Shown: one piece after another, positions 1,468-35,414 of the stretch
Layout: each line of letters begins with the position of its first letter
Numbering within the stretch: the first letter of the stretch is position 1
Assembly (NCBI GenBank): GCA_964502865.1
Contig: CAZCXX010000002.1
Location: 1-35,533 of the forward strand
Length of the DNA stretch: 35,533 nucleotides
DNA from: Candidatus Woesearchaeota archaeon
Lineage (GTDB): Archaea; Nanobdellota; Nanobdellia; Pacearchaeales; GW2011-AR1
Reading direction: 5' to 3'
Made by a program: the position numbers and the translations under genes
The notes under the pieces: model-generated
What the model saw: only the letters and a program-made list of their open reading frames with translations
Database searches by the model: none
Told to the model about the DNA's origin: nothing

Positions 1468-1687
1468 TGCCCCTGCCGGGATTTGAACCCGGGTTTAGGC
1501 CGTTCTCCATCGCCTCAAGACACCTCAAATCTTGCGATTCTCGGCGCGCGTGAGAACCAGTGGTTCTCGACATGAGGCGCTGGTTAAAATCAGTGCCTGT
1601 CTGTGAGCAGACTGAAGTTGTTATCTCATCGACTGCAACTTCGGCTATACGAGAGGGCCTCGTCCTTGACCTCTAGACTACAAGGGC
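1468..1687 (-). tRNA. tRNA-Glu(CUC) interrupted by a 147-nt intron at canonical position 37/38 (intron = 1503..1649)
   Basis: Read on the minus strand. Acceptor GCCCTTG/CAGGGGC (one G-U pair), D stem GTCT/GGAC, anticodon stem AGGCC/GGCCT, loop CTCTCG|intron|C, T arm CCGGG-TTCAAAT-CCCGG, discriminator A. A BHB-like fold is possible: CTCT pairs GGAG, with 3-nt bulges CG|T and AA|C. A TATA box lies about 25 nt upstream. Confidence 0.75.
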
Positions 1688-1711
1688 AATGAAAGGATGG
1701 AGAGGTGAAGG

Positions 1712-1719
1712 TTTAAAAG
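1712..1719 (-). promoter_or_regulatory. TATA-like box for tRNA-Glu
   Basis: The minus strand reads CTTTTAAA about 25 nt upstream of the tRNA 5' end at 1687. Confidence 0.5.
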
Positions 1720-1737
1720 CTATTTGGTAATCAGAAA

Positions 1738-1810
1738 TAGCCCTGCCAGGATTCGAACCTGGGTTTATGCCGCCAGAGGGCATCATACTTGACCGCTATA
1801 CGACAGGGCT
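1738..1810 (-). tRNA. tRNA-Gln(CUG)
   Basis: The minus strand reads AGCCCTG TC GTAT AGCGGTCA.. ATGCC CTCTGGC GGCAT .. CCAGG TTCGAAT CCTGG CAGGGCT A. The A1-U72 pair is typical of archaeal tRNA-Gln. A TATA-like CTTTAAAA lies about 25 nt upstream (plus 1835-1842). Confidence 0.9.
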
Positions 1811-1893
1811 ATTGTTCTGGGTAGGAGAAAGGTGTTTTAAAGCTTTCCTGGAAAGATTTTTATAGAAGCGTATCGGAGAAAGAGGGAGGAAAC

Positions 1894-2202
1894 ATGGTTA
1901 ATTGGCTTCTTATCGGCGTCCTTGTGGTAGCAGCAATGATTATTTTGAAATTCAAGGAAATCAGACATCAGGCAGGTATTTTTATCGGTCTTGGGATACT
2001 TGTGTTTCTCGTACTTTCGTTCGGTCATTTGTCCGCCACCCACGATATTGATTTAAACTCGTTTGATGGGTTCATGTATGCAAGCAAACTCTATATGGCC
2101 TGGCTTAAACATGCATTCGGAAACGTGGTTGAAACGACAGCTTATGTAGTTCACAAAGATTGGGGCTTGAACTCAACAGGCATTAATGCGAGCAAGCCAT
2201 GA
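1894..2202 (+). CDS. Small membrane protein (two predicted TM helices), paralog of the next gene
   Basis: The 102-aa ORF has a hydrophobic N-terminal half. GAGGGAGG lies 5-10 nt upstream of the ATG. Its stop overlaps the next start (ATGA). The C-terminal motif Y-AW...NV...T..VV..DW...NAS is shared with 2199..2423. Confidence 0.6.
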   Translation: MVNWLLIGVLVVAAMIILKFKEIRHQAGIFIGLGILVFLVLSFGHLSATHDIDLNSFDGFMYASKLYMAWLKHAFGNVVETTAYVVHKDWGLNSTGINASKP

Positions 2203-2423
2203 TTCGCGTCGGACTTGCAGTTTTTATCTTCTTTATCATTGGCGCTCTTTTTATTATCAGTAATGAGAATTTACAATTAGCAGATCGAGAGGAATATAAA
2301 GAATTTGTAGGTTTGTATTCTGCATGGATTTCATCCCTTGGTGAAAATGTTCGGCGCGTAACTGGGGCGGTTGTTGCAAGTGATTGGATACCAGATGCTG
2401 AAACTATGAACGCAAGCGAATAA
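2199..2423 (+). CDS. Small membrane protein, paralog of 1894..2202
   Basis: The 74-aa ORF has one N-terminal TM helix, is translationally coupled by the ATGA overlap, and shares the C-terminal motif of the upstream gene. Confidence 0.6.
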   Translation: MIRVGLAVFIFFIIGALFIISNENLQLADREEYKEFVGLYSAWISSLGENVRRVTGAVVASDWIPDAETMNASE

Positions 2424-2476
2424 TCGGCGCATTTTCGCTTACGCGGTTTTGCGTCAAGAGCGTAGCACAGGGACAT

Positions 2477-2584
2477 CTGAAGAACTCTGGGTTGAAACCC
2501 AGAGGTTCCTTGAGTTCTTCAGACCTCGAAAATTCATTTGCTTACTCCGGACTAAAGCCACGGAGCGTGCGCAAGTGAATTTTC
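2477..2584. other. Two adjacent nested-stem hairpins in the spacer upstream of tRNA-Thr
   Basis: CTGAAGAACTC (2477-2487) pairs with GAGTTCTTCAG (2512-2522) and encloses CTCTGGGT/ACCCAGAG. GAAAATTCATTTGC (2528-2541) pairs with GCAAGTGAATTTTC (2571-2584), 13 of 14 positions, and encloses CTCCG/CGGAG. Confidence 0.6.
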
Positions 2585-2654
2585 TCAGTGTCAAATGTGA
2601 GGCGGCAGCAATAAGCGGCATGTTTTTATACACATTTTGTGATCGTGATTATAA

Positions 2655-2726
2655 GCCTCTATGGCTCAGTGGTAGAGCGTTTCCTTGGTAAGGAAAAGGT
2701 CCCGAGTTCAATCCTCGGTAGAGGCT
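2655..2726 (+). tRNA. tRNA-Thr(GGU)
   Basis: GCCTCTA TG GCTC AGTGGT AGAGC G TTTCC TTGGTAA GGAAA AGGTC CCGAG TTCAATC CTCGG TAGAGGC T. A TATA-like TTTTTATAC lies about 20 nt upstream. Confidence 0.9.
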
Positions 2727-2821
2727 TTGGTTACTTACTTTCTATCGAAAAGAAGAAACCCTCTAAGCTGAACTACCGCTCTTGACGGTAGTTATATAAA
2801 CTCTTCTTTTTTTTGTTGGGT

Positions 2822-5003: not shown

Positions 5004-5004
5004 T

Positions 5005-6582: not shown

Positions 6583-6770
6583 CTATAGGAAATCGCTTTA
6601 ATAATCGTAATTTCTAACGCGATTTCCTATCTATCAAACAACACAACCACTACGAAAATTAATGTTGTTTGATATAGAGGACTTTGAAAAACCCCAAAGT
6701 CCTCTATCGAACCGCTTTGAAAACCCTCGAAGGACATCGAAATTGGAGGGTTATTCAAAGCTCTCTATAG
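6583..6770 (+). repeat. Hairpin-repeat family B, copy 1 (four consecutive TAG...CTA-footed hairpins)
   Basis: CTATAG-GAAATCGC[22 nt]GCGATTTC-CTATC; TATCAAACAACA[19 nt]TGTTGTTTGATA; TAGAGGACTTT[10 nt]AAAGTCCTCTA; CTTTGAAAACCCTC[17 nt]GAGGGTTATTCAAAG-CTCTCTATAG. The first two hairpins recur at 13258..13350. Confidence 0.85.
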
Positions 6771-7898: not shown

Positions 7899-8120
7899 TC
7901 CACCAAAAAGAAGATTTGTTATTTAAATATGCCGGATTGACATTCCTTTTCTTTTTCAACTTTATTTTCTAACGTGGAGAGATATCCTTTCAGTTTTTCA
8001 TTTTTTTAAAAGAAAATTGTTTTTGGTTTATATGGCAGACAAAAAAATAGCCTCAGTAAATAAGGAGCGCCGTAGGCGCGACGCGCCCGACATGGAGATT
8101 TTGCCATTGGAAAAGAGGGA

Positions 8121-8333
8121 GTGAAAGTGCGCTTAAGGGTGATTAGGCGAAACTGACTTCTGTAGATTATTTTTTAAGAAACAATAGTTCGATAAACATG
8201 CACTCTTCTTTCTTCCGCTCCGCTTAAATCATGTCGTAGAAAATAACGCTCACGCGTTTAATCCGATTTAAAAGAAATTACCGAGAAATACTAAAAGAAA
8301 TTTGTTTTCCCGCCCAATAGGAGAAATTGTTGC
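8121..8333. repeat. Left arm of a degenerate long inverted repeat flanking ORF 8384..8668
   Basis: Seven collinear blocks have reverse-complement partners in 8699..8905: GTGAAAGT, GTGATTAGGCG, CTGACTTCTG, CATGCACTCTT, AATTACCGAG, AGAAATTTGTT, GAGAAATTGTTGC. Confidence 0.75.
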
Positions 8334-8383
8334 AAGACTATCTCAATCACAAAATATAAAAAGGTAAACTTTGTAGATTAAGT

Positions 8384-8668
8384 ATGTATAGCAAGACGGC
8401 AATCATTTCTCTTATTATCGGAATAATGACTATTGTTTCAATACCAGTTATGCATTTATACGGAGGTTTTATAATTCCAGATTTTCCAGAAGAGATGTCT
8501 TTATTTTCATTTTTGGGTGTAATATTAGCAATTGTCTCTTTTTTTATAATTAAGAAAAAAGATTTAGAAGGTTTATGGGTTGCTGTGTTTAGTGCGATAT
8601 TAAATCTAGGGGCGATACTTATCCACTTTTATTTTCAGTCCTTTAAAATAGGGCTTAATGTTTCATAA
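8384..8668 (+). CDS. Small membrane protein (about 3 TM helices)
   Basis: The 94-aa ORF is strongly hydrophobic. AATATAAAAA (8353-8362) lies about 22 nt upstream of the ATG. The gene sits between the inverted arms. Confidence 0.55.
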   Translation: MYSKTAIISLIIGIMTIVSIPVMHLYGGFIIPDFPEEMSLFSFLGVILAIVSFFIIKKKDLEGLWVAVFSAILNLGAILIHFYFQSFKIGLNVS

Positions 8669-8698
8669 AAACTTGTAGCTCACACGAAAAACGAAGAC

Positions 8699-8905
8699 GC
8701 AACAATTTCTCGGATTAAAATTTCCCACCCTAACAAATTTCTAAAAAGCTCGGTAATTACGCTCCAGAAAAGAGTGCATGCAGAAGTCAGCTCACGAGAG
8801 CTTTCGGAGCTAGCTCACGTTCCTTTGGAACCGCCTAATCACGAGCAAACGGCCGATTACTTACTTTATCCTAAAGTATTTCCTGCGTGGAAATCATACT
8901 TTCAC
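8699..8905. repeat. Right arm of the degenerate long inverted repeat
   Basis: Partner blocks occur in mirrored order: GCAACAATTTCTC (8699-8711), AACAAATTTCT (8732-8742), CTCGGTAATT (8749-8758), AAGAGTGCATG (8770-8780), CAGAAGTCAG (8781-8790), CGCCTAATCAC (8832-8842), ACTTTCAC (8898-8905). Confidence 0.75.
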
Positions 8906-9074
8906 CCAACTTCCAGCGCAGATTAATTAGAGGGAACGCTTATTTCTATTGGAATTGACATCCCAAGTTGTTTTAGAACTCTCTTGAGAATTTCCTCTTT
9001 TGCTCGCTTTTTGAAACTAAGTATTCCTATGCTTTTAATCTCTTGCGTTTCTCTATCTTTAGTAATTATAAATA

Positions 9075-9716: not shown

Positions 9717-9906
9717 CTATAGTGGAAGACCTAAGTCCTTCCCCTAATAGCAGACGACACATCAAGAATTATCGAGGCTTCAATTCTTGACTGCGCTCAA
9801 GGACTTCGAGAATATGCTTATTCTCGACAGTGATCAAGAATTGGTAAATTCTTGACATTAGCAAATCCTTGACGGAACGGGGAGAAACTTATGTCGTCTG
9901 CTATAG
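9717..9906 (+). repeat. Hairpin-repeat family A, copy 1 (longest, doubly nested)
   Basis: CTATAGTGGAAGACCTAAGTCCTTCCCCTAATAGCAGACGACA...[internal hairpin modules]...GGGGAGAAACTTATGTCGTCTGCTATAG. The ends match the copies at 18230, 23895 and 29681. Confidence 0.9.
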
Positions 9907-9914: not shown

Positions 9915-11615
9915 TTAGATCAAACCTGCTTTGTGATGATTTTTAAGAAGTGATTTAACATGATGGACATCATCTATTTCATACGCAAAGTGATGTCCTA
10001 CTTTTGAGCCATGGCGGCGAGGTTTGTATTCAATCCAATATTTTTCAGGAGCAATTACCTGGGGAACGGGTAACACGAGGACCGGCTTTTTCTTTAGACT
10101 TTGAACTGGCGAGGTATTTGGATTTGGCGCAGCGCTCTGGGCAAGGGCTTCTGCTTCTTGTGCAACTTGTTCTTCCGCTATCTCGGCTTGCAATGCAATT
10201 TCCTCTTCAGTTGGTTTTGGTGGATGTATTTTTTCCCAGGTGGCGCTCGCAGTTTCCTTTACAGATTCATAATATTCTCGAGGATGGATCTTAGGAATAT
10301 GGTCAGTTACAGTATGTACATACTCACTTACTGGAAATTCCGAGATGTTCTCTTTTATGCGCTCATAATAGAGCAGAGGGTGAAATTTTGGAAGATGGAG
10401 TGCACGTCGGAGACGGGACGCACTGATCTGTGGATGAGGGAGATGGACTGACTTGATGTGCACGTCAGGGAGTTTAAGTTGCGGCAGATTTACATTTACA
10501 TCAGGCAATCGTAGTACGGGCAATTTTTCAATTAAATTATTTTTTTTTATGATACGAGCGCTTTTGTAAATCCTGTTCTTTAGGGCGGCGGTGGGAATCG
10601 TGTTTTTGATTCTATTGATAAGAGTGGAGAGCTTAATGCGAGGTCCATGGTTATCGTGAATGTTTATATGGGGAAGGGCAACTTTGGGAAGTTCCAAGTG
10701 ATGTAAGTGCACTGTGGAAAGCGAGAGGTGCTTTACATTGATTGGTGAGACCATCACACTCGAGAATTCCGGAAGTTTCAGTTCAGGCCAGTGTATTTGA
10801 GGGAGATGATGTACAGCATGTGGTGACGACGTTTCTTTTGAGAGAAGCAGTTGTCTCGCAGGTTTATTCGGCAGTTGAACACGTGTAAATACTTTAGTTG
10901 GGCGGATATTCTTGAGCTTATCGATAACCGATCGGACTTTATTTCTAAAGTTTTTCAGGTCTATCGTCGGAATATGGAACATGGGCTGAGTGGATGGCGG
11001 CAGTTGTGGGCTAACAGACATTAGTTTGTCAGCAAGTGCTTCCTGTTTCTGAATTGCTTTGGGATTTCTTTGTAATCGAAGTGCTTCTTTTTCCGCACGT
11101 TTTCGTGCTACATCTTCGATTATAAGTTTTTTGAAGTCAATTAGCAACTCGTGCATTTGTAGATCTTCGAGGGGTTTTCCTGAGTACGCGTATTCAATCA
11201 CTTTTTTCAGGATATTTGATGCAGAAGTCTGTTCTTTTTTTTCAAGTTGCAGTATCATCTCTGCGTAGGGTAATCTTTTCCCGACCTTGTATTCTTTAGA
11301 GAAATATTTACGAACTATGATGTCCATAACGTATAGTTTGTTAACCGCATCATCTTTACTAGAAATAAGCTGATTCAGTTCATCGATTAATTCGAGTTTT
11401 GGCGGTGGACCTTGGGCAAGTGTTGTTACCAGCCTTTCTTGTGGGGCAGGTTCTTTCTTAAAAAAACGGATGATTGTGGGAAATGGATTTAATGAATGTT
11501 CTTCCTGAACCGCCCCAGGAGTAATTTCTAATGCCTCAGGTTTTTTACTTTTTTTTAATTCGTGCTTTGCTTTAGCATGAGTAGCGTGCGACGCACGAAC
11601 CCTCTTTTTTTTCAT
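9915..11615 (-). CDS. Hypothetical protein with internal short LP-rich repeats
   Basis: ORF 9915..11672. I prefer the start at MKKKRVRAS (ATG 11613-11615), with TTTTTATAC about 20 nt upstream. It has a basic N-terminus and repeated (K/R)LP(D/E)(V/F)-type motifs (LRLPDVNVNLPQLKLPDVHIKSVHLP; LKLPEF...LELPKVALP). No known family. Confidence 0.6.
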   Translation of the reverse strand: MKKKRVRASHATHAKAKHELKKSKKPEALEITPGAVQEEHSLNPFPTIIRFFKKEPAPQERLVTTLAQGPPPKLELIDELNQLISSKDDAVNKLYVMDIIVRKYFSKEYKVGKRLPYAEMILQLEKKEQTSASNILKKVIEYAYSGKPLEDLQMHELLIDFKKLIIEDVARKRAEKEALRLQRNPKAIQKQEALADKLMSVSPQLPPSTQPMFHIPTIDLKNFRNKVRSVIDKLKNIRPTKVFTRVQLPNKPARQLLLSKETSSPHAVHHLPQIHWPELKLPEFSSVMVSPINVKHLSLSTVHLHHLELPKVALPHINIHDNHGPRIKLSTLINRIKNTIPTAALKNRIYKSARIIKKNNLIEKLPVLRLPDVNVNLPQLKLPDVHIKSVHLPHPQISASRLRRALHLPKFHPLLYYERIKENISEFPVSEYVHTVTDHIPKIHPREYYESVKETASATWEKIHPPKPTEEEIALQAEIAEEQVAQEAEALAQSAAPNPNTSPVQSLKKKPVLVLPVPQVIAPEKYWIEYKPRRHGSKVGHHFAYEIDDVHHVKSLLKNHHKAGLI

Positions 11616-11680
11616 AGGTGAAGGAGGGCACGCATGTATAAAAACATATCGAGGAGGTGTGTTGTCCCGCACTTAACCCT

Positions 11681-11924
11681 AAAGAAATCCTCTATCTTTA
11701 GATAGGGGTTTAATTTTGTAGAGGATTTCTTTGGTCTCACAAAACCACAAACAAACCTCGGCTTTTAAGCCGAGGTTAAAACCCGAAGGGTTTTGTGATA
11801 ACCGCAAGGCTGAGAGAAATTCCTGCCACGAGTATAGAGAACTGCGTAGGATAGATTACATTTTGTACGCATTTCTCTAATAGATAACTGCAGAACCATG
11901 TCATGCATCCCATGCAGTTATCTA
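11681..11924. repeat. Cluster of four TAG...CTA-type hairpins (unique stems)
   Basis: AAAGAAATCCTCTA/TAGAGGATTTCTTT; CACAAAACC/GGTTTTGTG enclosing CCTCGGCTT-TTAA-AGCCGAGG; TAGAGAA(C)TGCGTA/TACGCATTTCTCTA; TAGATAACTGCA/TGCAGTTATCTA. The junctions read TATAG, CTAATAG and CTATAA. Confidence 0.8.
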
Positions 11925-11949
11925 TAACGAAAGATCTTTACATAGATTT

Positions 11950-13257: not shown

Positions 13258-13444
13258 TATAGGAAATCACTTTAATAATCGTAATATTCTAACGTGATTT
13301 CCTATCTAGCAAACAACAAAAAAGCTACGAAAATTAATGTTGTTTGCTATAAGGAGAATTATAGGAAAAGAAATTAATTTTCGTATCTTTCTTTTCCTAT
13401 CTATCGAGTGAAAAACTTCCGAAAACTTATTTCCCTCGATATAG
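13258..13444 (+). repeat. Hairpin-repeat family B, copy 2
   Basis: TATAGGAAATCAC[22 nt]GTGATTTCCTATC; TAGCAAACAACA[19 nt]TGTTGTTTGCTA; ATAGGAAAAGAAA[14 nt]TTTCTTTTCCTAT; TATCGAG-TGAAA...ATTTC-CCTCGATATAG. It starts 13 nt after tRNA-Trp. Confidence 0.85.
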
Positions 13445-13515
13445 ATAGCCAGCCGCAGCAAGCTGCTGAGTATTGGACTCAAAATGGAATAAAAACAAAA
13501 AATTAATCTACGTCT

Positions 13516-13857: not shown

Positions 13858-13966
13858 AATAACCTCCTTTCATCATAAACCTAACTATGCCTATTTTACG
13901 TAGACAGTGTTTAAATAGGTTTCGACGTCGATTCTATAGACACCAAGGCCCGGTATATGGAAGAGA

Positions 13967-14026
13967 GTTTGAGCAATAAAGAATCCCAATCGCAGCAAGC
14001 TGCAGGGTATTCTTTAAGCCTCAAAC
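13967..14026 (+). repeat. Repeat family D copy (nested hairpin around CGCAGCAAGCTGC)
   Basis: GTTTGAG-CAA-TAAAGAAT-CCCAAT-CGCAGCAAGCTGC-AGGG-TATTCTTTA-AGC-CTCAAAC. The core also occurs at 13454-13466 and 18363-18375. Confidence 0.7.
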
Positions 14027-14071
14027 TGAGGAAGACGCACCAAGGTGCGGAGTATTTAACCCAATTTGAAA

Positions 14072-18229: not shown

Positions 18230-18304
18230 CTATAGTGGAAGATCTAAGTCCTTCCCCTAATAGCAGACGACAAACTGGGGAGAAACTAATGTCGTCTGCT
18301 ATAT
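18230..18304 (+). repeat. Hairpin-repeat family A, copy 2 (short form)
   Basis: CTATAGTGGAAGATCTAAGTCCTTCCCCTAATAGCAGACGACA-AACTGGGGAGAAACTAA-TGTCGTCTGCTATA. It starts 2 nt after the helicase stop. Confidence 0.9.
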
Positions 18305-18348
18305 TCAAGGGGCGCAGTGAATCGATACTGAGAAAGGCTTTTCTCTAA

Positions 18349-18413
18349 TAAAGAATCCCAGTCGCAGCAAGCTGCGGAGTATGGACTCAGTTTGAGCAAT
18401 CGAGTAAAGAATA
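18349..18413 (+). repeat. Repeat family D copy
   Basis: TAAAGAATCCCAGTCGCAGCAAGCTGCGGAGTATGGACTCAGTTTGAGCAATCGAGTAAAGAAT. It shares segments, in permuted order, with 13967..14026, and shares the core plus GAGTAT(T)GGACTCA with 13454..13481. Confidence 0.7.
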
Positions 18414-18460
18414 CGTTTAAATAAGCCGTTAGCGTAGGAGTTCTGCAAGGAGGTGAATAA

Positions 18461-18694
18461 ATGGTACGTGAAAAAACTGTAGCACAAACCGGTCGCGCGC
18501 TCGCTACGTTAGTAGCTATTGCAATGTGGCTTACCGGTATTATTGTAGCGTTGGCCGTTGGTTTTGGCATGACTTCCGGCGCTTTGAGCATTCCTTGGTT
18601 GCCTGATGTCATTACAATGGCAGCAGGTTGGATTGTGGTTATTTTGACGATTGTCGGTATTGTGCTTGCGATTATTGATCGCGTAACTGCATAA
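18461..18694 (+). CDS. Small membrane protein (2-3 TM helices)
   Basis: The 77-aa ORF is hydrophobic. AAGGAGGTG lies 6 nt upstream of the ATG. Confidence 0.55.
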   Translation: MVREKTVAQTGRALATLVAIAMWLTGIIVALAVGFGMTSGALSIPWLPDVITMAAGWIVVILTIVGIVLAIIDRVTA

Positions 18695-19236: not shown

Positions 19237-20280
19237 ATGAAGCGAGTGGTGATTATTGGTGGCGGATTTGCTGGTACACTCATTGCAAAAAAATTACAAT
19301 CTCATTTTGCGGTTACACTTATCGACAGTAAAAACTATTTCGAGTTTACTCCAGGGATTTTAAGAACTATTGTTGAACCAGCACATTGGAAACATATACG
19401 CGTGCTTCATCGGCAGTATTTGAAAAGAACTAAACTTGTCCTTGGCATTGTTTCCAGCGTGGCAGAACATGATGTGCGCATTGGAAAACATCACTTGCCT
19501 TTTGATTACTTAGTTATTTGCTCTGGGTCAAGCTATAACTCGCCTATCAAAGAGCAACATGTCGTGCTGCCAGTGCGTGCGAGACATTTAATCGATGCTC
19601 ATCGAAGGCTCGAGAAGGCAGCGCGAGTGCTCATTATTGGCGGAGGGCTCGTCGGCGTTGAGCTTGCCGCAGAGATCATTACGCACTATCCCAATAAGGC
19701 GGTAAGCATTGTCCACCCATACCAATTTTTGATTGAGCGTAACCATTTGAAATCTAGAATATATGCTGCAGCCTTCTTAAAAAAGCGAGGAGTGGATATT
19801 ATTTATTGTGATAGAGTGAAGAGGAATGAGCATGGTGCATTTGTGACTGAACAAGGGAGAACATTACATGCAGATATTACATTTTTGTGTACCGGCATTA
19901 CTCCTAATTTTTCGTTTCTCGATGGTACTTTTAAACATGTTTTGAATGAACGAAATCAAGTTCGAATTAACCAGCATTTACAAGTTAAGGATTTTGAGCA
20001 TATTTTTGCTGCAGGAGATATTACTGACAGTGTTGTGGAAAAAACTGCACAAAATGCGGAAAAACAAGCAGCTGTTGTCGCGGCTAATATTCGCGCACTT
20101 GAGCGCGGAGAGGTATTGCGTTCGTATGCTCCACGCCGAACCTCACAAGTTATCAGCTTAGGAAAATGGGACGGTATTTTTGAAGTGGGGGAACATATCA
20201 TTACCGGTCTAGTTCCTGCGTATATGAAATCAGCGATTGAAAGACGAGAGATGTGGCGGCGCGGGTGCTTGTTTAGATAA
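19237..20280 (+). CDS. FAD-dependent pyridine nucleotide-disulfide oxidoreductase (NDH-2 / AIF-like)
   Basis: I prefer the start MKRVVIIGGGFAGT at ATG 19237. A second dinucleotide fold is VLIIGGGLVGVELAAE, and the C-terminal region has FAAGDIT. Confidence 0.8.
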   Translation: MKRVVIIGGGFAGTLIAKKLQSHFAVTLIDSKNYFEFTPGILRTIVEPAHWKHIRVLHRQYLKRTKLVLGIVSSVAEHDVRIGKHHLPFDYLVICSGSSYNSPIKEQHVVLPVRARHLIDAHRRLEKAARVLIIGGGLVGVELAAEIITHYPNKAVSIVHPYQFLIERNHLKSRIYAAAFLKKRGVDIIYCDRVKRNEHGAFVTEQGRTLHADITFLCTGITPNFSFLDGTFKHVLNERNQVRINQHLQVKDFEHIFAAGDITDSVVEKTAQNAEKQAAVVAANIRALERGEVLRSYAPRRTSQVISLGKWDGIFEVGEHIITGLVPAYMKSAIERREMWRRGCLFR

Positions 20281-21646
20281 AATTCTCGCTGGTGAGTACT
20301 TGTTCAAGCTCTTGTATTGCATTATCGGGCTTTTGATTGCTCTCGAGCGTATACTCCCAAAGCCGGTTTGCCTGCCCATCAAAAACCGCGATTCTATTCC
20401 AATCAAGCTCAATTCTTCCCCCATTTCTGAGCCCCTTGTTTTTGTAGGTGGCTGCTTTTCCTTTTACTGCAGCGATTGTTTGTGGAGGCGCATGCATTGC
20501 ATTTATGATTTCTTCTTCAGTAATCCAACGCTCGATCCAACCGTCATTATCCTGAATTTGATAAAATAAGCCCCCACTATCTATGCGGTGGTAATCCAGC
20601 CCAATACTTTGTATGAGTGCGCTTCCCGTATCTAGACCCGTATCTGTCATGTACTGTTCTATGAGGTATTTTTTTGTCACCCAGTCAAGTCTTCCTGCTA
20701 GTGCATACGGATCTTCTTTAATTCGTGCAAGGAGTTTGACCGTTTCTTCAAAACAATCGATAACGCTGTCTCTGAACGCATTTTGACCATAGAGTTCGCC
20801 CTTTATTGCCGAACAATACTTCTTGTAAACATCTGTCAGCCTTCTGTACTCTACAGGAGTTCCTTCCAGTGACCATTCAGCTTGCTGTTCTGAAAGAGAA
20901 TACATATCACTTACAGCTTTCTGCGTATCGTAAGGTATATGGGGAAGCAAATTGGCTTCAGCAAGATCAAGCATACATCTCCATAACTCTGTTTTTAAGA
21001 CAACCGCACTTTCACACATATTTCCATCGTTGCTAATATGATGAAACCGTTTCCAGGGTGCAAAATCTCCTTGATCGCGAAGATTAAGAAGTGCACGCCG
21101 TTGTGTTGTACAGTTTGAGAACGGTTCGAGAATGAACGGTCGTCGCTGGAGCAAATCATAACGTCCATTTAGATAATGGTATCCTGCGCCGGTAATCACT
21201 TTTTCAATAACTGACCAGAGTAAGAGGGGTGCTCGCGCTTCTTCTGAAGCAACAATCGTGGTACTGAAATTGAGATGACTTCCAAATGAAACTTTTGCAT
21301 CCCTATTTGTTTTGTATACCATCGGATTAAGATTTTTATCAATGAGCGTGAAGATTTGTTGTTCCATCGCTTTTTCATATCTTAGTAGGTCGAGGGTATT
21401 ATCAACAATTGGCGTGCATCCTTCAAGATGTTTTAAATCAATGTATGTTTCCCCTCCATTTTCGAAATAATGACGGCCCTTAATGAGATCTTGCAGATAT
21501 TCATCTCGCTTTTCGTCATCTTCTATTGCATTTAAGATTACTGCAAATTCGTGCTCAATGCCGCACAATCTATTTTCTAGTACACTTTCTTTTCTTTCAT
21601 GCTTTTGCTGTCTTTGTTTTAGAAGTTCTATTATTCTTTCTTTCAT
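20273..21646 (-). CDS. PafA/Dop-family carboxylate-amine ligase homolog (Pup-ligase-like)
   Basis: By-eye motif matches to M. tuberculosis PafA along the whole length: GIEHEFAV, NGGETYIDLKHLEG, YKTNRDAKVSFGSHLNF, ITGAGY, LLQRRPFI, LNLRDQGDFAPWKRFHHISNDGNMCE, LDWVTKKYL, LDYHRI, HAPPQTIAA, ELDWNRI. At about 457 aa it is PafA-sized and has no Dop-type loop. I prefer ATG 21644-21646 to the TTG at 21652. Confidence 0.8.
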   Translation of the reverse strand: MKERIIELLKQRQQKHERKESVLENRLCGIEHEFAVILNAIEDDEKRDEYLQDLIKGRHYFENGGETYIDLKHLEGCTPIVDNTLDLLRYEKAMEQQIFTLIDKNLNPMVYKTNRDAKVSFGSHLNFSTTIVASEEARAPLLLWSVIEKVITGAGYHYLNGRYDLLQRRPFILEPFSNCTTQRRALLNLRDQGDFAPWKRFHHISNDGNMCESAVVLKTELWRCMLDLAEANLLPHIPYDTQKAVSDMYSLSEQQAEWSLEGTPVEYRRLTDVYKKYCSAIKGELYGQNAFRDSVIDCFEETVKLLARIKEDPYALAGRLDWVTKKYLIEQYMTDTGLDTGSALIQSIGLDYHRIDSGGLFYQIQDNDGWIERWITEEEIINAMHAPPQTIAAVKGKAATYKNKGLRNGGRIELDWNRIAVFDGQANRLWEYTLESNQKPDNAIQELEQVLTSENFI

Positions 21647-21673
21647 GCTCAACAGGAAAGGGAAAAGGGGTTT

Positions 21674-23894: not shown

Positions 23895-23968
23895 TATAGT
23901 GGAAGACCTAAGTCCTTCCCCTAATAGCATACGACAAAACGAGGAAAAACTAATGTCGTATGCTATAG
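23895..23968 (+). repeat. Hairpin-repeat family A, copy 3 (short form, compensated stem)
   Basis: TATAGTGGAAGACCTAAGTCCTTCCCCTAATAGCATACGACA-AAACGAGGAAAAACTAA-TGTCGTATGCTATAG. It overlaps the last codons and stop of the antiporter gene. Confidence 0.9.
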
Positions 23969-25674: not shown

Positions 25675-25836
25675 AGTGCAGGAGAAGGGATGTACTTTTA
25701 AATACCTAGCGTTTTTGTTGAGGTTCTACTTTGCAAAGCCTTAAAAGCACTTTTTTGTTCCATTAATCATCATATTCATCCCTGTTTAGGCTGGGATGAA
25801 GGGCTCATCGCACGCGGCGCGGTGAGCCCACTTTTT

Positions 25837-26744: not shown

Positions 26745-26916
26745 TTTCATCAGTCTTAGTATCTTCGCTTTCCTCAGCTCAGATGAAGGATTAACCTGCG
26801 AATGGTTGTTTTTCACTCGCTACATTCTTAAATACTCATTGTTTCTCTCTTTTTTATGAATGAGGTGACTCCTTTGCAGGATATAGAGAATTTCATTGAA
26901 AATGGGGCTATAAGTC

Positions 26917-27423
26917 ATGAAATTCTCTAATGGACAATTGCCGAAAACAGAGGACATAAGTAATGCAATTGTCCATATTTATTTTGCTGCGTCGATTCGT
27001 GGCGGACGCGAAGATATATCCGTCTATACTTCATTGATCACTCATTTGAGCAAGTACGCGCGAGTTTTAACTGAGCATGTAGGCAATCGAAATCTTGCAG
27101 CTTGGGGAGAAGATGGTCTAACTGACGAAGAAATTTACCAGCGAGACATGGGTTGGCTTGCATCTGCAAGGGCGGTGGTTGCTGAAGTTTCAAATCCTTC
27201 GCTTGGAGTGGGTTATGAGGTATGCGCGGGTTCGCTTATTTATCATCTTCCAACGCTCTGCCTTTATCGGAAACAAGAAGGCAAGCGTCTCTCTGCGATG
27301 ATTGCCGGTGCCCCCGGATTAATTGTTGCTCCATACGAGTCATTAGATGATGCACGGGCACTTCTTGATCAGTATGTTCCTCAATTGCTGGGGCTTCCGC
27401 GGAGACATCATGAAACTTCGTGA
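26917..27423 (+). CDS. 2'-deoxynucleoside 5'-phosphate N-hydrolase (DNPH1/Rcl-like, nucleoside 2-deoxyribosyltransferase fold)
   Basis: IYFAASIRGGRED, VLTEHV, VVAEVSNPSLGVGYE and LSAMIAG closely track human DNPH1 motifs (YFCGSIRGGRED, VLTEHV, VVAEVTQPSLGVGYE, LSAMIRG). Confidence 0.8.
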   Translation: MKFSNGQLPKTEDISNAIVHIYFAASIRGGREDISVYTSLITHLSKYARVLTEHVGNRNLAAWGEDGLTDEEIYQRDMGWLASARAVVAEVSNPSLGVGYEVCAGSLIYHLPTLCLYRKQEGKRLSAMIAGAPGLIVAPYESLDDARALLDQYVPQLLGLPRRHHETS

Positions 27424-29020: not shown

Positions 29021-29710
29021 ATGGAGCGAGGCAGTGTGAAAAAAGGGCTTTTTATTGTCTTTGAAGGCATTGACGGCAGTGGAAAAACATCGCAGATTGA
29101 ACGTCTTGCACGATACATTCGCGCTCAGGATAAATATCGAGATGTTCTTTTGACACGGGAGCCTACTTGGCGTGCAACTGAATTACTTGAACAACTTCAA
29201 GGTAATGCAGACGCTTTTTCGAACGGTGAGCGCATGGCGTATCAATTTGTTTGGGATCGGAAAGCTCATACCGACGCACAGATTAAACCTGCCTTAGAGC
29301 AACGTGCGTTTGTTCTGTGTGATCGGTATGCGATGTCTACTTGTGCGTATCAAGCTGCGCAAGGTGTACTGCTTGATACTTTACTCCGCTACCATGAAGA
29401 GGCTCAAACACTTACTCCCCATATTACATTTTTTGTCGATGTCCCTCGTGAGGTAGCTGAAGCACGGATGATCAAACGAGGAGCTGCTCCTGAAAAGTTT
29501 GAGAAAAATGCAACGTTTACTGATTTACTTATTAAGCATTATCGTTTACTTGCAGAAAAAAGTCTTACAGATGAACGGTTACGCAGAGTTATCGGTCCTG
29601 TGGTGAGCATTGATGGAATGCCCTCTCTGGATCAAGTTGGTGAGCAAATTCAAGTTGCTTATGGTCAAGCGATGCGTGCTTATAGTGGAAGACCTAAGTC
29701 CTTCCCCTAA
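29021..29710 (+). CDS. tmk: Thymidylate kinase
   Basis: The P-loop FIVFEGIDGSGKTSQ and DRY motif (CDRYAMST) are present. The start is MERGS at 29021, 2 nt after the thyA stop. The last 9 codons and the stop lie inside repeat A4. Confidence 0.9.
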   Translation: MERGSVKKGLFIVFEGIDGSGKTSQIERLARYIRAQDKYRDVLLTREPTWRATELLEQLQGNADAFSNGERMAYQFVWDRKAHTDAQIKPALEQRAFVLCDRYAMSTCAYQAAQGVLLDTLLRYHEEAQTLTPHITFFVDVPREVAEARMIKRGAAPEKFEKNATFTDLLIKHYRLLAEKSLTDERLRRVIGPVVSIDGMPSLDQVGEQIQVAYGQAMRAYSGRPKSFP

Positions 29711-29816
29711 TAGCAGATGACACATCAAGAATTATTGAGGCTTCAATTCTTGACTGCGCTCAAGGATTAGCAAATCCTTGACGGAACGGGGAGAAACTTA
29801 TGTCGTCTGCTATAGT
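29681..29816 (+). repeat. Hairpin-repeat family A, copy 4 (intermediate form)
   Basis: TATAGTGGAAGACCTAAGTCCTTCCCCTAATAGCAGATGACA-[TCAAGAATT..AATTCTTGA; TCAAGGA..TCCTTGA]-GGGGAGAAACTTATGTCGTCTGCTATAG. Confidence 0.9.
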
Positions 29817-32734: not shown

Positions 32735-32961
32735 AAAAATTCATTCTCAAACGCTTCTTTGTCAATTCCAAGTTGTCTTAAAACATTTCCATAAATCCAA
32801 ACAGCGATCTCTTCACGATGCGTTGGAACATTCGTTGACTTGTTATTCTTTGGATTTTCAAGAATAACACCATGAGAGGTATTCCTCTTTTCGATGCAAC
32901 CATATTTTTTGAGTGCTTGTAAGAAATTCCGCACTTTTAAATTTCTCCGATTCATGCTCAC
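32731..32961 (-). CDS. hicA: HicA-like mRNA interferase toxin
   Basis: The 76-aa protein has LKVRNFLQALKKYGC....TSHGVILENP....TNVPTHREEIAVWIYGNVLRQLGIDKEAF, fitting the HicA pattern (SH...vP.H..ei....l..il.qlgi). Confidence 0.7.
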   Translation of the reverse strand: MSMNRRNLKVRNFLQALKKYGCIEKRNTSHGVILENPKNNKSTNVPTHREEIAVWIYGNVLRQLGIDKEAFENEFF

Positions 32962-33027
32962 CTCTTTCCGAAGAAGAGGCAGAGCTATTTAATTCCTCTG
33001 TTTACTACGAAGATTTTTACCTATTCT

Positions 33028-33441
33028 TCACTTTGATTGTTTATGGCTTTCCAAATAGTCTATGAATCCATTTACAAAAGTTACCTCATTCCGGTAGCTT
33101 CCGAGTTTGCATCTTGGTCCTTGAACTGGGTTTCTAGATGTTGAGTAAAAAATAGGCATAAGTAGATAAGACCCTATACTTCTAAGACCAGAAGATTCTC
33201 TTCTGTCTATGGTGCCAATCTCATCCCCTTCATTAAACTTAAATTGCTTTAGTACTAACTCTGCTAGGTTTTTACCTATATTTTGGTTTTCTGGATTGTT
33301 ACCTAGGCTACCACGTTCCATTACTTCTGTAAGTGGTTCCTTTTCTCTTTTAGAGCAATCATAAACTGAACACCCGACAAAACTTCGAGGCTCAAACATA
33401 ATCTCTTGGTATTCACTCCATATTTCAAATCTCTTTTTCAT
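33028..33441 (-). CDS. Hypothetical protein
   Basis: A 137-aa ORF in the AT-rich accessory segment with no recognisable motif. Confidence 0.45.
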   Translation of the reverse strand: MKKRFEIWSEYQEIMFEPRSFVGCSVYDCSKREKEPLTEVMERGSLGNNPENQNIGKNLAELVLKQFKFNEGDEIGTIDRRESSGLRSIGSYLLMPIFYSTSRNPVQGPRCKLGSYRNEVTFVNGFIDYLESHKQSK

Positions 33442-33595
33442 CTCTTTCCTCCCTTTGTGTCCCTTTCAGGCTGCTTCATTGCGTCGTGCTCCATACACTC
33501 GGAATATGAAGAAAAGAGATAAATCTCTGTTGATGAAGTTTCTACAACATATCCTAAGCGAAAGATTTAAATATATATAATTCTGGTTATATAAC

Positions 33596-34852
33596 ATGGA
33601 TTATATAATAGAAAGGCGAGATACTGCCTCCATTACTCAAGAAAGACAATGGCTGCTACTTTATGGCAGAAGAAAAGTTGGCAAGACCTTCCTTTTGAGA
33701 AACCTTTGTACTTTCAAGAAATACTATACAGTTAAAAAAGACCTTGGTATTATTGCTCATGATATAACCATCTCCCTTGATGATATGATGCGTGAAGTAA
33801 AAAAACTGCTTCATGATGGACAGACTGTGGTTATTGATGAATTTCAAAGGCTTCCTGAGAGCGTTCTTGAAGAGCTCACAGTCGTACATCCCCATGGTAA
33901 GCTCATATTATCAGGCTCAAGCTTGAGAATTCTTAAAAAGATTTTTGAGCCGCAATCTCCTCTCCTCGGCTTTTTAAATCCAGTAAAGATGGGTTTTATA
34001 AGCCCCTCTGATATTCTGATAGGGTTACATGCTCATGTGAAAAGTGAACTTCTCGTGGAACTTTCAACGTTCCTCAGGGAACCCTGGCTCATACCCTCTT
34101 ACGATGAAAAACCACTCATAGATTTTATCTATAAGCTTATTACGCAATCAAAACAGACGCTCACTGCGCTAGTTGGAGAAATCTTTGGCGAGGAGGAAAG
34201 AGAGCTCACGGGCAAATACTCTGCAATCATTGGGCTCATTGGCTCTGGCATATGGAATACTACGGAATTGACTTCGATTCTGTACTCAAGAAAACTTATT
34301 CCTGAACCCAGCCCCACGCATCTTGCTCAATACCTCAAGAATCTCGAAGAAATGGAAATTGTAGAAAGCATAAAAATGTATTCCTCTAAGAGAAAATATT
34401 ATCGGCTTGCTTCTCCTCTGATGAATGTATATTATTACTTAGAGAGCAGATATAATATTAATGACCGACAGATATCTTTAGAAGAAATTCGCCCAACGCT
34501 CCAAAAATCTATTAACTTTGAGATACAAAATTTCATTGCAGACTTATTTTCAGAAATTTACTCTGGAAGAAAAGAATATTTTATCTCGCCTGATAAAGAA
34601 ATTGATTTCATTATCACTGTAAGAAACAAGCCATCAATAATAGGGGAAGTAAAGTGGAAAGCATTAGAAAAAGAAGATATACGTAAATTTTTCCGTAATT
34701 CAGAAAAAATTTTTGGCAGGAAAATTATCTTCTGCAAAAGCAGCAAGTTTACCGAAGAAGATGTAGAAATTATGAATGTCGACACACTCTTGCCACTTAT
34801 AAAGGAAAAAAGAAAGATGCGTATCGAAGAATCTGCCAGGGGGTTCTCTTAA
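33596..34852 (+). CDS. Archaeal ATPase (Arch_ATPase + DUF234-type C-terminal PD-(D/E)xK-like domain)
   Basis: Walker A LLYGRRKVGKTFL, Walker B VVIDEFQRL, and a C-terminal EIDFIITVRNKPSIIGEVKWK that is nuclease-like (D...E.K). Confidence 0.75.
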   Translation: MDYIIERRDTASITQERQWLLLYGRRKVGKTFLLRNLCTFKKYYTVKKDLGIIAHDITISLDDMMREVKKLLHDGQTVVIDEFQRLPESVLEELTVVHPHGKLILSGSSLRILKKIFEPQSPLLGFLNPVKMGFISPSDILIGLHAHVKSELLVELSTFLREPWLIPSYDEKPLIDFIYKLITQSKQTLTALVGEIFGEEERELTGKYSAIIGLIGSGIWNTTELTSILYSRKLIPEPSPTHLAQYLKNLEEMEIVESIKMYSSKRKYYRLASPLMNVYYYLESRYNINDRQISLEEIRPTLQKSINFEIQNFIADLFSEIYSGRKEYFISPDKEIDFIITVRNKPSIIGEVKWKALEKEDIRKFFRNSEKIFGRKIIFCKSSKFTEEDVEIMNVDTLLPLIKEKRKMRIEESARGFS

Positions 34853-34853
34853 T

Positions 34854-35222
34854 ATGGGATGGTATGGAGTATTCTTAGTGCCAAAAGCAAAAATGATATT
34901 CTCTCTAAGAAGCGTAGATGAGGGGACACTTGATGATGCTTTTGAATCCCTGGAAAGGTTCTTTGGTAAGTATGATAAGATGAAAGAAGACATCTATGAA
35001 ATCACCTCCACTGCTGAAGAAAGCAAAACATTTTCAGCTAAAATAACTGCAAAGATGTTTGGTATCGTAGATGAGATTGGCGGGCTTCCCGAATTGCATC
35101 CTTCAGTTTTCTTACTTTACTTCTTACATAAACATGGATTTGAGATAAAGTATCATCACGAAAATGATATCAATACTGAGGATCTTGAAAAGAAAGGCTG
35201 GCAATTGGTAGAATATACTTGA
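34854..35222 (+). CDS. Hypothetical protein
   Basis: The 122-aa ORF starts 1 nt after the ATPase stop, implying an operon. No recognisable motif. Confidence 0.45.
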   Translation: MGWYGVFLVPKAKMIFSLRSVDEGTLDDAFESLERFFGKYDKMKEDIYEITSTAEESKTFSAKITAKMFGIVDEIGGLPELHPSVFLLYFLHKHGFEIKYHHENDINTEDLEKKGWQLVEYT

Positions 35223-35316
35223 ACAGCCAGCGATTATAGCATTGAACTTCTCTTCTCTTTCCACTAGAAGCAACAGTTAATGCCCTGACGGGCAGCTCCG
35301 CTCTACATATAGCTAA

Positions 35317-35414
35317 TTTGGCGGAGTACTCCGCCAAACATCGAGAATCCTGTGTTTTTGATTCTCGAGTGTGCTCAAGAATCTCAAAATAGACGAGAAG
35401 ATTCTTGACATTAG
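35317..35414 (+). repeat. Hairpin modules including family C (TCGAGAAT..ATTCTCGA-N6-TCAAGAAT..ATTCTTGA-CATTAG)
   Basis: TTTGGCGGAG-TA-CTCCGCCAAA (35317-35338); TCGAGAAT[12]ATTCTCGA (35341-35368); TCAAGAAT[18]ATTCTTGA (35375-35408); CATTAG. The same two-stem module sits nested inside repeat A1 at 9806-9861. Confidence 0.8.

Follow-up and report, generated by a model that had tools for sequence, protein, structure and literature searches.

The intergenic spacers of the window (the whole 35,533-nt stretch analysed here, from a host described as a small groundwater DPANN archaeon) carry families of tiny (32 to 190 nt), palindromic, non-coding repeats of mobile type that lie in duplicated TA sites. 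Hairpins with at least 11 paired bases and a loop of 4 to 24 nt number 15 in the window; 100 dinucleotide-shuffled versions average 1.64, with never more than 5. Nine have a strict TAG...CTA foot, versus 0.04 in the shuffles, and three have near-variant feet (TAT...ATA at 6632-6674 and 13402-13441, TAATAG at 11878), so that 12 of the 15 start with TAG (or TAT) and end with CTA (or ATA), usually on a 12-bp stem. The hairpins noted in the initial annotation are largely real. However, its rule that all intergenic hairpins run from TAG to CTA has exceptions: hairpins of class 2 (TCRAGRAT...ATYCTYGA), those with a TAAAG foot, a GC-rich pair at 25775-25829 and the multicopy hairpins at 2476-2584. 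Since the common foot is shared by 12 distinct stem sequences, it does not reflect a single repeat counted repeatedly. The modules end in TA-TAGNNRA...TYNNCTA-TA, with a purine at position 5 in 24 of 24 ends and A at position 6 in 22 of 24 (12 distinct modules), and only about 7 terminal bases are common to all. Stem variation preserves pairing (97% of cells paired, compensatory changes in 9 of 12 pairs), a level equalled in 0 of 500 shuffles. A search of the hairpin modules against Rfam matched no family.

Most modules are organized in arrays, all given here on the plus strand. Array 1 (6584-6769) comprises a B doublet and family C inside one duplicated TA (C-TA...TA-G). The doublet consists of the inverted module H1 (6586-6629) and a second module, H2 (6632-6674), while family C (6673-6769, 97 nt, terminal inverted repeats (TIRs) matching at 20 of 26 positions) contains hairpin H3 (6675-6706) and the imperfect hairpin H4 (6714-6761) and ends in CTCTCTATA at 6769. 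Array 2 (11673-11926) combines the TAAAG-footed hairpin H7 (11679-11734), GC-rich nested hairpins (11742-11800) and the inverted doublet H8-H9 (11833-11926; H8 at 11835-11879, H9 at 11881-11924), again with a 20/26 TIR match; across doublets, 17 to 20 of 26 TIR positions match. Array 3 (13258-13443) has four modules of alternating orientation, H10 (13260-13304, inverted), H11 (13307-13349), H12 (13362-13399, inverted) and H13 (13402-13441), and adjoins a copy of the D3/D5 motif, CGCAGCAAGCTGCKGAGTAT (13445-13490). Other D3/D5 copies (13975-14055 and 18347-18395, with a joint at 14010>18361) lie inside TAAAG...CTTTA-footed hairpins, which are a related yet distinct family; the motif is also present in loci L012 and L002. 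Hairpins H20 (TAG...CTA, 26884-26929) and H21 (ATGG...CCAT, 26930-26976) together span 26884-26976 on the plus strand, overlap the annotated start of ORF 26917-27423 and have a low copy number (14-24x).

Family A is present in four plus-strand copies. In copy 1 (9718-9905), hairpin 1 lies at 9720-9746, and the arms of hairpin 2 (9748-9759 and 9893-9904) enclose a 115-nt cluster of class-2 hairpins (9760-9874), itself interrupted by a 54-nt insert (9803-9856); the joints 9759>9875 and 9802>9857 share zero or one letter, indicating nested class-2 insertion without duplication. Copy 2 (18231-18303, 73 nt) is the short-loop form and begins 2 nt past a helicase stop codon; it supplies the last five codons and the stop of a minus-strand ORF (18286-18612). 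Copy 3 (23895-23967) differs from copy 2 by a stem G-C to T-A change compensated on both arms, and likewise provides the last five codons and stop of a minus-strand Na+/H+ exchanger ORF. Copy 4 (29681-29814) has a 61-nt class-2 insert (29723-29783, joint 29722>29784) in the loop of hairpin 2, and a thymidylate kinase ORF reads into it (TAT AGT ... TAA). A further class-2 cluster (35308-35410, plus strand; TCGAGAATC...GATTCTCGA and TCAAGAATCT...AGATTCTTGA, ending in GACATTAG) is preceded by ATATAG, contains no TAG...CTA hairpin and is not multicopy at 90% identity. A marginal plus-strand hairpin (2719-2765, TAGAGGCTTT...AAACCCTCTA, nine pairs and one mismatch), which uses the 3' end of tRNA-Thr, may be due to chance.

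The elements are multicopy, have unrelated flanks and are missing from syntenic relatives. In the source metagenome, contig depth over the modules is 55-2500x versus 6-8x over unique DNA, a ratio of up to about 300 (array 1, 55-690x versus 6x; array 2, 77-315x; family A copy 1, up to 2500x; copy 4, 332x), with steps exactly at 6583, 6769, 9718 and 9905/6, and joints reveal the modules in other combinations at other loci. The 73-nt family A with TATAG...CTATA ends is found between unrelated flanks in the four window copies, four copies in a Woesearchaeota MAG and four metagenome contigs, and units are also present in other DPANN assemblies. In relatives with the same gene order (about 53 kb compared), hairpins are near shuffle level and only one is TAG-footed.

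Several observations suggest insertion at TA. The initial annotation had predicted pre-insertion sites reading CTAG, and the single orthologous empty site found, at locus L018 of a relative, does read C-TA-G: L018 has CACTAGCTTTTTAAGC, its G standing exactly 31 nt ahead of the PheRS-alpha ATG. The window PheRS promoter reads CAC-TA-[186-nt array]-TA-GCTTTTTAAGC with the same spacing, where L018 reads CAC-TA-GCTTTTTAAGC; the case consists of this one site, on whose distal side just three letters (CAC) match. Five ORFs read into an element with the codon TAT. Deletion of the element plus one TA places a stop at the junction in four of them (TAG in three, TAA in one) and two codons past it in the fifth, whereas under models with no duplication or a TATA target the ORFs run on for as many as 29 codons or never reach a stop. 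The termini of orthologues lie within one residue of the predicted ancestral ends. A counter-case occurs at L009, where an ORF stops on the element's own TAG and no early stop follows when the element and one TA are removed. Reconstructed targets fit YTAR in 11 of 16 cases versus a background of 0.20 (p = 4e-5). Together, the empty site, the restored stop codons and the YTAR targets support insertion at TA with TA duplication, making a TAG...CTA unit that duplicates TA the best-supported reading; however, CTAG is just one of the preferred contexts, with TTAA and TTAG/CTAA targets as common. Junctions within arrays read CTA-TAG, CTA-A-TAG or CTA-TC-TAG, and the CTA-TA-TAG expected from simple serial TA insertion does not occur within them.

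The palindrome CTATAG, reported at essentially every hairpin boundary, is only partly a property of the elements. What the elements conserve at their ends is TATAG...CTATA, and base six already belongs to the host flank (C, T or A on the 5' side and G, A or T on the 3' side among the 12 family A copies), so the hexamer arises only by chance of the flank. The eight CTATAG hexamers of the window are confined to element or other non-coding DNA (Fisher p = 2e-7), but eight is no excess over the 6-8 expected, and CTAG is not notably depleted (observed/expected 0.84). Among 17 CTATAG-type positions listed, 15 are true element boundaries; the exceptions are 1645, which belongs to the anticodon arm of a tRNA with an intron, and 13934, a solo CTATAG (13934-13939, no strand) with no adjoining hairpin, which may be coincidental or may be a footprint left by excision (C-TA-TA-G). 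Co-orientation of all families was likewise an overstatement. It applies only to the composite units of the window (family A 4/4, B-type doublets 3/3, D3 motif 3-4 of 3-4; about 8-9 independent coin flips, p of about 1/256 to 1/512), but individual modules can lie either way round and alternate in direction along an array: H1, H10 and H12 contain, as its reverse complement, the loop motif seen in H2, H11 and H13. At L009 the relative orientation of families A and C is the reverse of the one seen in the window. The element strand has positive GC skew in seven of eight contigs.

We consider the hairpins to be probably (about 0.6) non-autonomous, MITE-like mobile elements that duplicate TA and are moved in trans by an IS630/Tc1-mariner-type enzyme. 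The basic module would be a near-perfect 12-bp inverted repeat with a loop of 8-20 nt and ends 5'-TAGNNRA...TYNNCTA-3'. The 73-97 nt doublets (families A, B, C and H8-H9) would be related modules in opposite orientation, an arrangement whose TIRs, about 26 nt long, are imperfect. A unit would integrate at TA, preferably within YTAR (CTAG included), and duplicate it to give TA-TAG...CTA-TA, the target often lying within a stop codon or immediately ahead of a BRE/TATA promoter. Later units would insert in loops or at the ends of resident units, producing mosaics in a putative order of insertions, with probable TA loss by slippage at CTA-TAG junctions; CTATAG would appear wherever an element end adjoins either a host C or G or a following unit's TAG. 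The enzyme, presumably encoded outside the window, is most likely a DDE transposase of the IS630/Tc1-mariner type since the units duplicate TA, favour YTAR and have symmetric TIRs at their ends; we infer this attribution from insertion behaviour. The window contains no transposase genes of any kind, and in about 200 kb of related loci no autonomous element with TATAG ends was observed; the ends of the IS66 gene of L009 and the IS200 gene of L021 are different. Counting against a DDE enzyme are the mere 7 or so shared terminal bases, very little for it to bind, single modules (32-47 nt) below typical MITE size, and uniform composite-unit orientation over 29 kb, which is not expected of a DDE element, as well as the missing CTA-TA-TAG junctions, the class-2 inserts without duplication, the single empty site and the L009 ORF.

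Some of these features would suit REP/BIME/REPIN-like elements, an unlikely alternative in which an HUH enzyme (RAYT or IS200-type TnpA) recognises hairpins folded from single-stranded DNA, cleaves them at the (A)TAG foot and places them behind a TA of the lagging-strand template. Such an element, itself ending in TA, would leave the same one-TA empty site with no true duplication, consistent with the nested inserts. Module size, compensated stems, alternating modules in mosaic clusters as in BIMEs, the co-oriented composite units, the GC skew and a foot recalling the REP GTAG tag (PMC3733652) also fit, and an IS200-type Y1 gene is present in a relative (L021), IS200/IS605 being the commonest archaeal IS family (PMC13343696). 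However, the TAG here is base-paired and at both ends, which are symmetric TIRs, unlike the REP tag, which stays unpaired and marks one side; archaea are not known to have RAYT-class enzymes (PMC6006769); the end hairpins of the L021 IS200 are unrelated and TAG modules are absent from that locus; families A and C are oppositely oriented at L009; and the window has no HUH gene. The REP/BIME-HUH mechanism raised in the initial annotation fits in architecture and co-orientation but fails on the tag and on duplication.

Somewhat less probable still is mobilisation or copying by a kind of enzyme not yet linked to such elements (e.g. a structure-specific nuclease or recombinase recognising a cruciform or hairpin foot), or that the modules are relics spreading today by TATAG-end recombination alone. 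This would accord with terminal conservation beside freely varying yet complementary stems, with recombination of modules at TATAG junctions, with known transposases not being found in the window or related loci, and with the similar Correia elements, whose mobilising enzyme was never identified either (PMC2649163); against it, a known superfamily already explains the TA duplication and YTAR preference. Host motifs evolved in place and never mobile (3'-end mRNA stabilisers or terminators, or protein-binding sites) are disfavoured as very improbable: elements occupy 9 of about 17 window spacers where at least one gene ends and 0 of 6 divergent ones, abut promoters and keep stem complementarity, but they are missing in syntenic relatives, have 73-nt copies 90-100% identical in unrelated contexts and other genomes, break stop codons and lengthen ORFs, are oriented independently of transcription (two copies lie between divergent genes, at L003 and L008), nest in one another and match no Rfam family.

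MITEs derived from IS630/Tc1-mariner elements include RUP of Streptococcus pneumoniae and Nezha of cyanobacteria, and IS630 itself prefers CTAG. The window elements share their TA target, 2-bp duplication, TIR boundaries, intergenic location and multicopy state, but the long TIRs of those MITEs are also those of an identified parent IS, whereas here all modules have only about 7 nt in common and a parent IS was not found. IS200/IS605-derived PATEs, known in archaea and strand-biased in orientation, are also hairpin-bearing and ORF-less, but have asymmetric ends with subterminal hairpins and integrate, with no duplication, on the 3' side of a target of 4-5 nt. The Correia/NEMIS elements of Neisseria are similarly short (69-157 bp, TIRs of about 26 bp), non-coding, near promoters and gene ends, and flanked by a duplicated TA, starting TATAG[CT]GGA (PMC5039591, PMC2649163). 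Family A starts TATAGTGGA, all window modules fit TAGNNRA, and the first nine bases (TATAGYGGA) match window ends. However, similarity ends after these 9 nt, and Correia elements are one bacterial family with a fixed core, in contrast to the many stem variants, 32-47 nt single-hairpin modules and mosaics here. REP elements resemble the modules as 20-40 nt extragenic palindromes with a conserved tetranucleotide foot, inverted doublets, alternating clusters, compensatory stem changes and TAG stops given to neighbouring ORFs (PMC3733652, PMC3116915), but their tag (GTAG or CGTC) is unpaired at one end only, insertion is without duplication and the RAYT gene is REP-flanked. The initial annotation went too far in stating that nothing similar was described in archaea: RAYT/REP systems have indeed not been reported there (PMC6006769, PMC3733652), but archaeal MITEs dependent on trans-acting transposases are known (PMC3718332), and IS630 and IS200/IS605 are catalogued in archaea (PMC13343696). 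The Sulfolobus SM/SMN MITEs are likewise non-autonomous archaeal TIR elements (PMC3718332), though as 164-320 bp derivatives of known ISs, and in a 2024 census one Woesearchaeal genome, with 105 MITEs per Mb, ranks with the archaea of highest MITE density (PMC11602168); that census gives counts alone, without anatomy, target or module structure. The elements of the window are a known kind of element, MITE- or REP-like, in an unusually modular and dense form.

The window is part of a DPANN archaeal chromosome and encodes housekeeping functions (PheRS alpha and beta, SerRS, ThyA, Tmk, Ogg, an RNase P p30-like gene, and tRNAs), and the closest relatives of its SerRS, 82% identical, are named Nanoarchaeota or Pacearchaeota. 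The DNA came from a groundwater metagenome, whose contigs provide the depths reported here. Hairpins with at least 11 pairs and a loop of 4 to 24 nt number 15 in the window, compared with a mean of 1.64 and a maximum of 5 in 100 dinucleotide shuffles. TAG...CTA feet are present in 9 of these 15 (0.04 in shuffles), and 3 more have near variants. The stem is nearly always 12 bp long, and the foot is common to 12 distinct stem sequences, with conservation reaching TA|TAG-N-N-R-A (a purine at position 5 in 24/24 ends and an A at position 6 in 22/24). The initial annotation had proposed that intergenic hairpins start with TAG, end with CTA, and meet at CTATAG. The hairpin excess and the feet bear this out; however, comparison of 12 copies of family A, a composite unit, shows that the constant end is TATAG...CTATA and that the sixth base follows the flank, so CTATAG is read only where the host base is C or G. 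Two of the 17 boundary examples are foreign, one being the anticodon arm of an intron-bearing tRNA (1645) and the other a solo hexamer (13934). CTATAG shows no overall excess (8 observed versus 6 to 8 expected); all eight hexamers are confined to DNA that is non-coding or belongs to elements (p = 2e-7).

Single modules have 12-bp perfect TIRs, and units, 32 to 190 nt in size and with no ORF of their own found, end in TATAG...CTATA throughout. Many modules have a loop motif in common (ACGAAAAYTAA or GGAGAAACTWA), and hairpins H1, H10, and H12 bear its reverse complement, indicating that single modules are present in both orientations; module orientation alternates in the arrays at 6584-6676 and 13258-13443. 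In an alignment of 11 distinct loop-motif modules, 97% of the cells of the 12-bp helix are paired and 9 of 12 helix pairs are changed on both sides, a value reached by 0 of 500 shuffles. Composite units pair related modules as inverted doublets and thus have imperfect TIRs of ~26 nt, with 17-19/26 matches in family A (73 nt; window copies at 9718, 18231, 23895, and 29681), 18-20/26 in family B, and 20/26 in both the H8-H9 doublet and family C (97 nt). The family A copies at 9718 and 29681 have a cluster of "class-2" hairpins within the loop of hairpin 2 (115 and 61 nt, respectively), the longer one differing through an additional 54-nt insert. The junctions of these inserts are without duplication, and uninterrupted forms are present in contigs at 53-77x.

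The elements are highly repeated. Unique window DNA has a depth of 6-8x, compared with 2100-2500x for hairpin 1 of family A, ~750x for the 3' arm of its hairpin 2, 350-690x for family C, and 55-160x for family B, so that element depth reaches up to ~300 times that of unique DNA, possibly spread across several related genomes in the sample. Steps in depth coincide exactly with the TATAG and CTATA ends, and contig joints reveal the same modules differently combined elsewhere (for example, H4 joined to H8 with one common TATAG). Family A also occurs, at 90-100% identity and with unrelated flanks, as four copies in a Woesearchaeota MAG and on four contigs from three metagenome datasets, one of which (L009) contains family C as well. 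No copy of family A was found in viral contigs, Rfam searches at the gathering threshold and in E-value mode recovered tRNAs only and gave no hit to the elements, and the RNA runs searched for window sequence gave no match. About 53 kb of syntenic relatives (L012, L014, L015, and L018) contain seven hairpins of comparable strength, one of them TAG-footed. This near absence from relatives with the same gene order shows the elements to be additions to particular lineages rather than conserved host motifs. L017, another assembly from the same organism, matches the window at 99.9% identity across 9.9 kb with zero indels, and no metagenome contig skips a whole element.

Three lines of evidence, namely one empty site and, indirectly, the restoration of stop codons and target context, agree that insertion duplicates TA. 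Of 16 units, 15 are flanked by the dinucleotide at either end; in the remaining one, the array at 13258-13443, the ATA foot of H13 provides the right-hand TA and is not followed by another. The empty-site evidence is one orthologous site, in L018, where CACTAGCTTTTTAAGC is the sequence of the PheRS-alpha promoter and the G of GCTTTTTAAGC precedes the ATG by 31 nt. Its window counterpart consists of CAC-TA, the 186-nt array at 6584-6769, and TA-GCTTTTTAAGC, with the 31-nt spacing kept. The single TA in L018 identifies C-TA-G as the pre-insertion site, in agreement with the CTAG target and TA duplication proposed in the initial annotation. No nucleotide-level empty sites were recovered at the SerRS, helicase, and Ogg junctions, where the relatives are too diverged (65-75% nucleotide identity). 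Five ORFs enter an element, each via the codon TAT: Tmk, ORF 18286-18612, the Na+/H+ exchanger, the p30-like gene, and one ORF in another element-bearing locus (L004). Removing the element and one TA places a stop at the exact junction in four of the five (TAG in three, TAA in one) and two codons on in the fifth, whereas models with no duplication or with a TA^TA target give several ORFs long or endless extensions. Orthologues of the exchanger in L014 and of the p30-like gene in L018 end, respectively, one residue before and one residue beyond the predicted ancestral end. The family C case in L009, in which the ORF stops on the element's own TAG, is a poorer fit to the restoration model. Reconstructed NTAN targets are YTAR in 11/16 units, against a background of 0.20 (p = 4e-5), and CTAG in 2/16.

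The IS630/Tc1-mariner superfamily, together with its MITEs, is characterized by TA duplication, a preference for YTAR or CTAG, and symmetric TIR ends. Members of IS630 have been catalogued in archaea (PMC13343696). These features, together with the analogy to the Correia element of Neisseria, favor MITE-like elements that duplicate TA and are mobilized in trans, a reading to which we assign a probability of about 0.6, with an IS630/Tc1-mariner-type enzyme as the inferred mover. The Correia element is the closest described analogue, having a 26-bp TIR that begins TATAG[CT]GGA, a TA duplication, forms of 69-157 bp, and no identified transposase (PMC5039591, PMC2649163); family A begins TATAGTGGA. 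However, Correia/NEMIS elements have a 26-bp repeat (TATAG[CT]GGATTAA...) and a conserved core, and only the first 9 nt match here (PMC5039591); the window elements are an analogue, not a member. Several properties count against a simple DDE picture: only ~7 nt are common to the modules, single modules are very small, composite units are all one way round, and array junctions read CTA|TAG rather than CTA-TA-TAG. Loss of TA by slippage in TATATA could yield such junctions.

The initial annotation had looked to HUH or DDE transposases as movers. Neither is present in the window, where a Pfam search of 30 ORFs found no transposase and housekeeping genes only, and an autonomous IS with the same ends was absent from the window and ~200 kb of loci, the source genome being known from the 35.5-kb contig, the 9.9-kb duplicate assembly L017, and short Logan contigs. 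In the element-bearing loci L009, L001, and L005, Pfam searches of ORFs likewise detected no transposase gene with TATAG ends. Transposases found elsewhere have other ends. An IS66-family DDE gene (L009, 5631-6908) is 260 nt from a family A copy but lacks TATAG ends, and its proximity was judged coincidental; an IS200-type Y1_Tnp in a relative (L021, 6926-7327) was rejected as the mover, having unrelated end hairpins (CCCTGCCCTAAAGGGCAGGG) and no TATAG ends. The 585-aa ORF flanked by arrays was also rejected as a transposase, being low-complexity and P/K-rich, matching nothing in PDB or Pfam, and having orthologues in relatives.

REP/BIME/REPIN-like elements moved by single-strand HUH transposition would resemble these repeats in architecture (small palindromes, a conserved foot, inverted doublets, mosaics, and compensatory changes), and the 20-40 nt extragenic palindromes of those systems, present at high copy in clusters that alternate in orientation, have their counterpart here. 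We consider this origin unlikely. Known REP tags (GTAG or CGTC) are unpaired and one-sided (PMC3733652), whereas the (A/T)TAG tag here is paired with CTA(T/A) at both ends. RAYTs have not been reported in archaea (PMC6006769), no RAYT gene is present in the window, and the hairpins of the sole IS200 found in a relative are unrelated. Orientation points both ways. Single-strand transposition would give co-orientation, and the composite units are indeed co-oriented in the window (equivalent to ~8-9 coin flips, p ~1/256 to 1/512) and in the element-bearing loci L002 and L003; the earlier claim that all families run the same way does not hold for single modules, which lie both ways round, or for L009, where families A and C have opposite relative orientation. 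The suggested correlation with GC skew is weak and confounded by gene orientation, the strand that carries the elements having positive skew in 7 of 8 contigs. PATEs derived from IS200/IS605 have asymmetric ends and subterminal hairpins and insert 3' of a 4-5 nt target, which they do not duplicate, whereas the ends here are symmetric, the hairpins terminal, and TA present on both sides; the single-TA empty site is also compatible with an element ending in TA.

It is similarly doubtful that an enzyme specific for the hairpin foot, either an archaeal counterpart of RAYT/REP or one from a class that has yet to be associated with repeats of this sort, mobilizes the modules in the form of folded single-stranded DNA. 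Such an enzyme would need only the ~7-nt TAGNNRA foot and a 12-bp stem, which would explain both the free co-variation of stems and the uniform strand orientation. Since the foot is the Correia repeat end, and the Correia mover is itself unidentified, one kind of enzyme might act on both. An origin as functional motifs that were never mobile is disfavored by the unrelated flanks, high copy number, near absence from syntenic relatives, and orientation independent of transcription direction, with two copies between divergent genes. Integron attC sites were dismissed on their feet (not RYYYAAC...GTTRRRY), housekeeping neighbors in conserved synteny, and lack of an integrase in the window, and sequence inspection found the motifs or spacing of C/D-box, H/ACA, attC, and CRISPR absent.

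The TAG...CTA rule fails as a description of all intergenic hairpins, as other repeats in the window lack the foot. Class-2 hairpins (foot TCRAGRAT...ATYCTYGA, often ending GACATTAG) are present at 9760-9874, 29723-29783, and 35341-35410, as well as in the relatives L020 (4864-4891) and L021 (1900-2080), and are also found in relatives without TAG modules. Hairpins with TAAAG...CTTTA feet bear the CGCAGCAAGCTGCG motif and enclose CGCAGCAAGCTGCGGAGTAT in uniform orientation (13445-13490, 13975-14055, 18347-18395, and ~600-640 in L012); CGCAGCAAGCTGCGGAGTAT is present in L012 and L002 too. Two strong hairpins without the TAG foot (TCTGAAGAACTC...GAGTTCTTCAGA and GAAAATTCATTTGC...GCAAGTGAATTTTC) lie upstream of tRNA-Thr at 2476-2584 and are multicopy (120x versus 6x in metagenome depth), making them another repeat family.

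An intron-bearing tRNA gene (1463-1690, minus strand; intron ~140 nt, roughly 1503-1645) was missed by both ARAGORN and Rfam. Six contigs of the same metagenome fuse the tRNA 3' half straight to the 5' half, which means that other genomes in the sample are without this intron. The proline/lysine-rich 585-aa ORF (9915-11672, minus strand) has orthologues of 538 aa in L020 and 549 aa in L021 and is missing from syntenic L015; its true start is probably the ATG of MKKKRVRAS, after the conserved promoter GATATGTTTTTATACA. The Pup-ligase family is known chiefly from actinobacteria; in this DPANN archaeon a member (PF03136, E = 2e-47) is encoded at 20273-21652 on the minus strand and kept in syntenic L014 and L015. 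Between the amino-acid kinase and Ogg, 1.2 kb (7899-9074) contain no convincing gene and no Rfam match; the interval is only 167 nt in L015, and metagenome contig variants skip 76 nt (8228>8305) and 390 nt (8331>8722) of it. Depth is doubled (18-19x) at 32904-33567, where a second contig is ~10% different and has a 3-nt deletion; either a paralogue of the gene at 33028-33441 or a second strain may lie behind this.

DPANN archaea have among the smallest and most compact cellular genomes. Parasitic hairpin modules make up ~1.3 kb of this 35-kb housekeeping stretch, where they destroy stop codons, lengthening ORFs by 4-9 residues, and adjoin the BRE/TATA of PheRS-alpha and Ogg. They may donate start codons as well, as ORFs begin inside elements in two cases. 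Hairpin 2 of family A has GGAG-N6-ATG in its loop, and in L005 (811-883 and 869-2437) a 522-aa HerA-like ORF begins at that ATG; ORF 26917-27423 begins within the 3' arm of H20 (26884-26976). The SD-like GGAG...ATG was rejected as a general translation start, an ORF following it only in L005. MITEs, REP-like repeats, and archaeal MITEs are already known, and a MITE census includes one Woesearchaeal genome with 105 MITEs per Mb (PMC11602168). The novelty lies in the anatomy, in which minimal modules with a 12-bp stem share a terminal consensus of 7 nt, have stems that co-vary freely, and join into doublets and mosaics, as well as in a TA/YTAR target that often falls on stop codons and in the Correia-like end. 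The shared TATAGYGGA end is a weak lead to the Correia-mobilizing activity. Short-read contigs end inside elements, and the families both serve as metagenomic markers of related DPANN lineages and account for the breaks between contigs in MAGs of those lineages. The elements form a natural series of minimal transposon ends, with ~7 conserved bases and any 12-bp complementary stem, which allows the sequence needs of a TA-specific transposase or a hairpin-specific enzyme to be tested.
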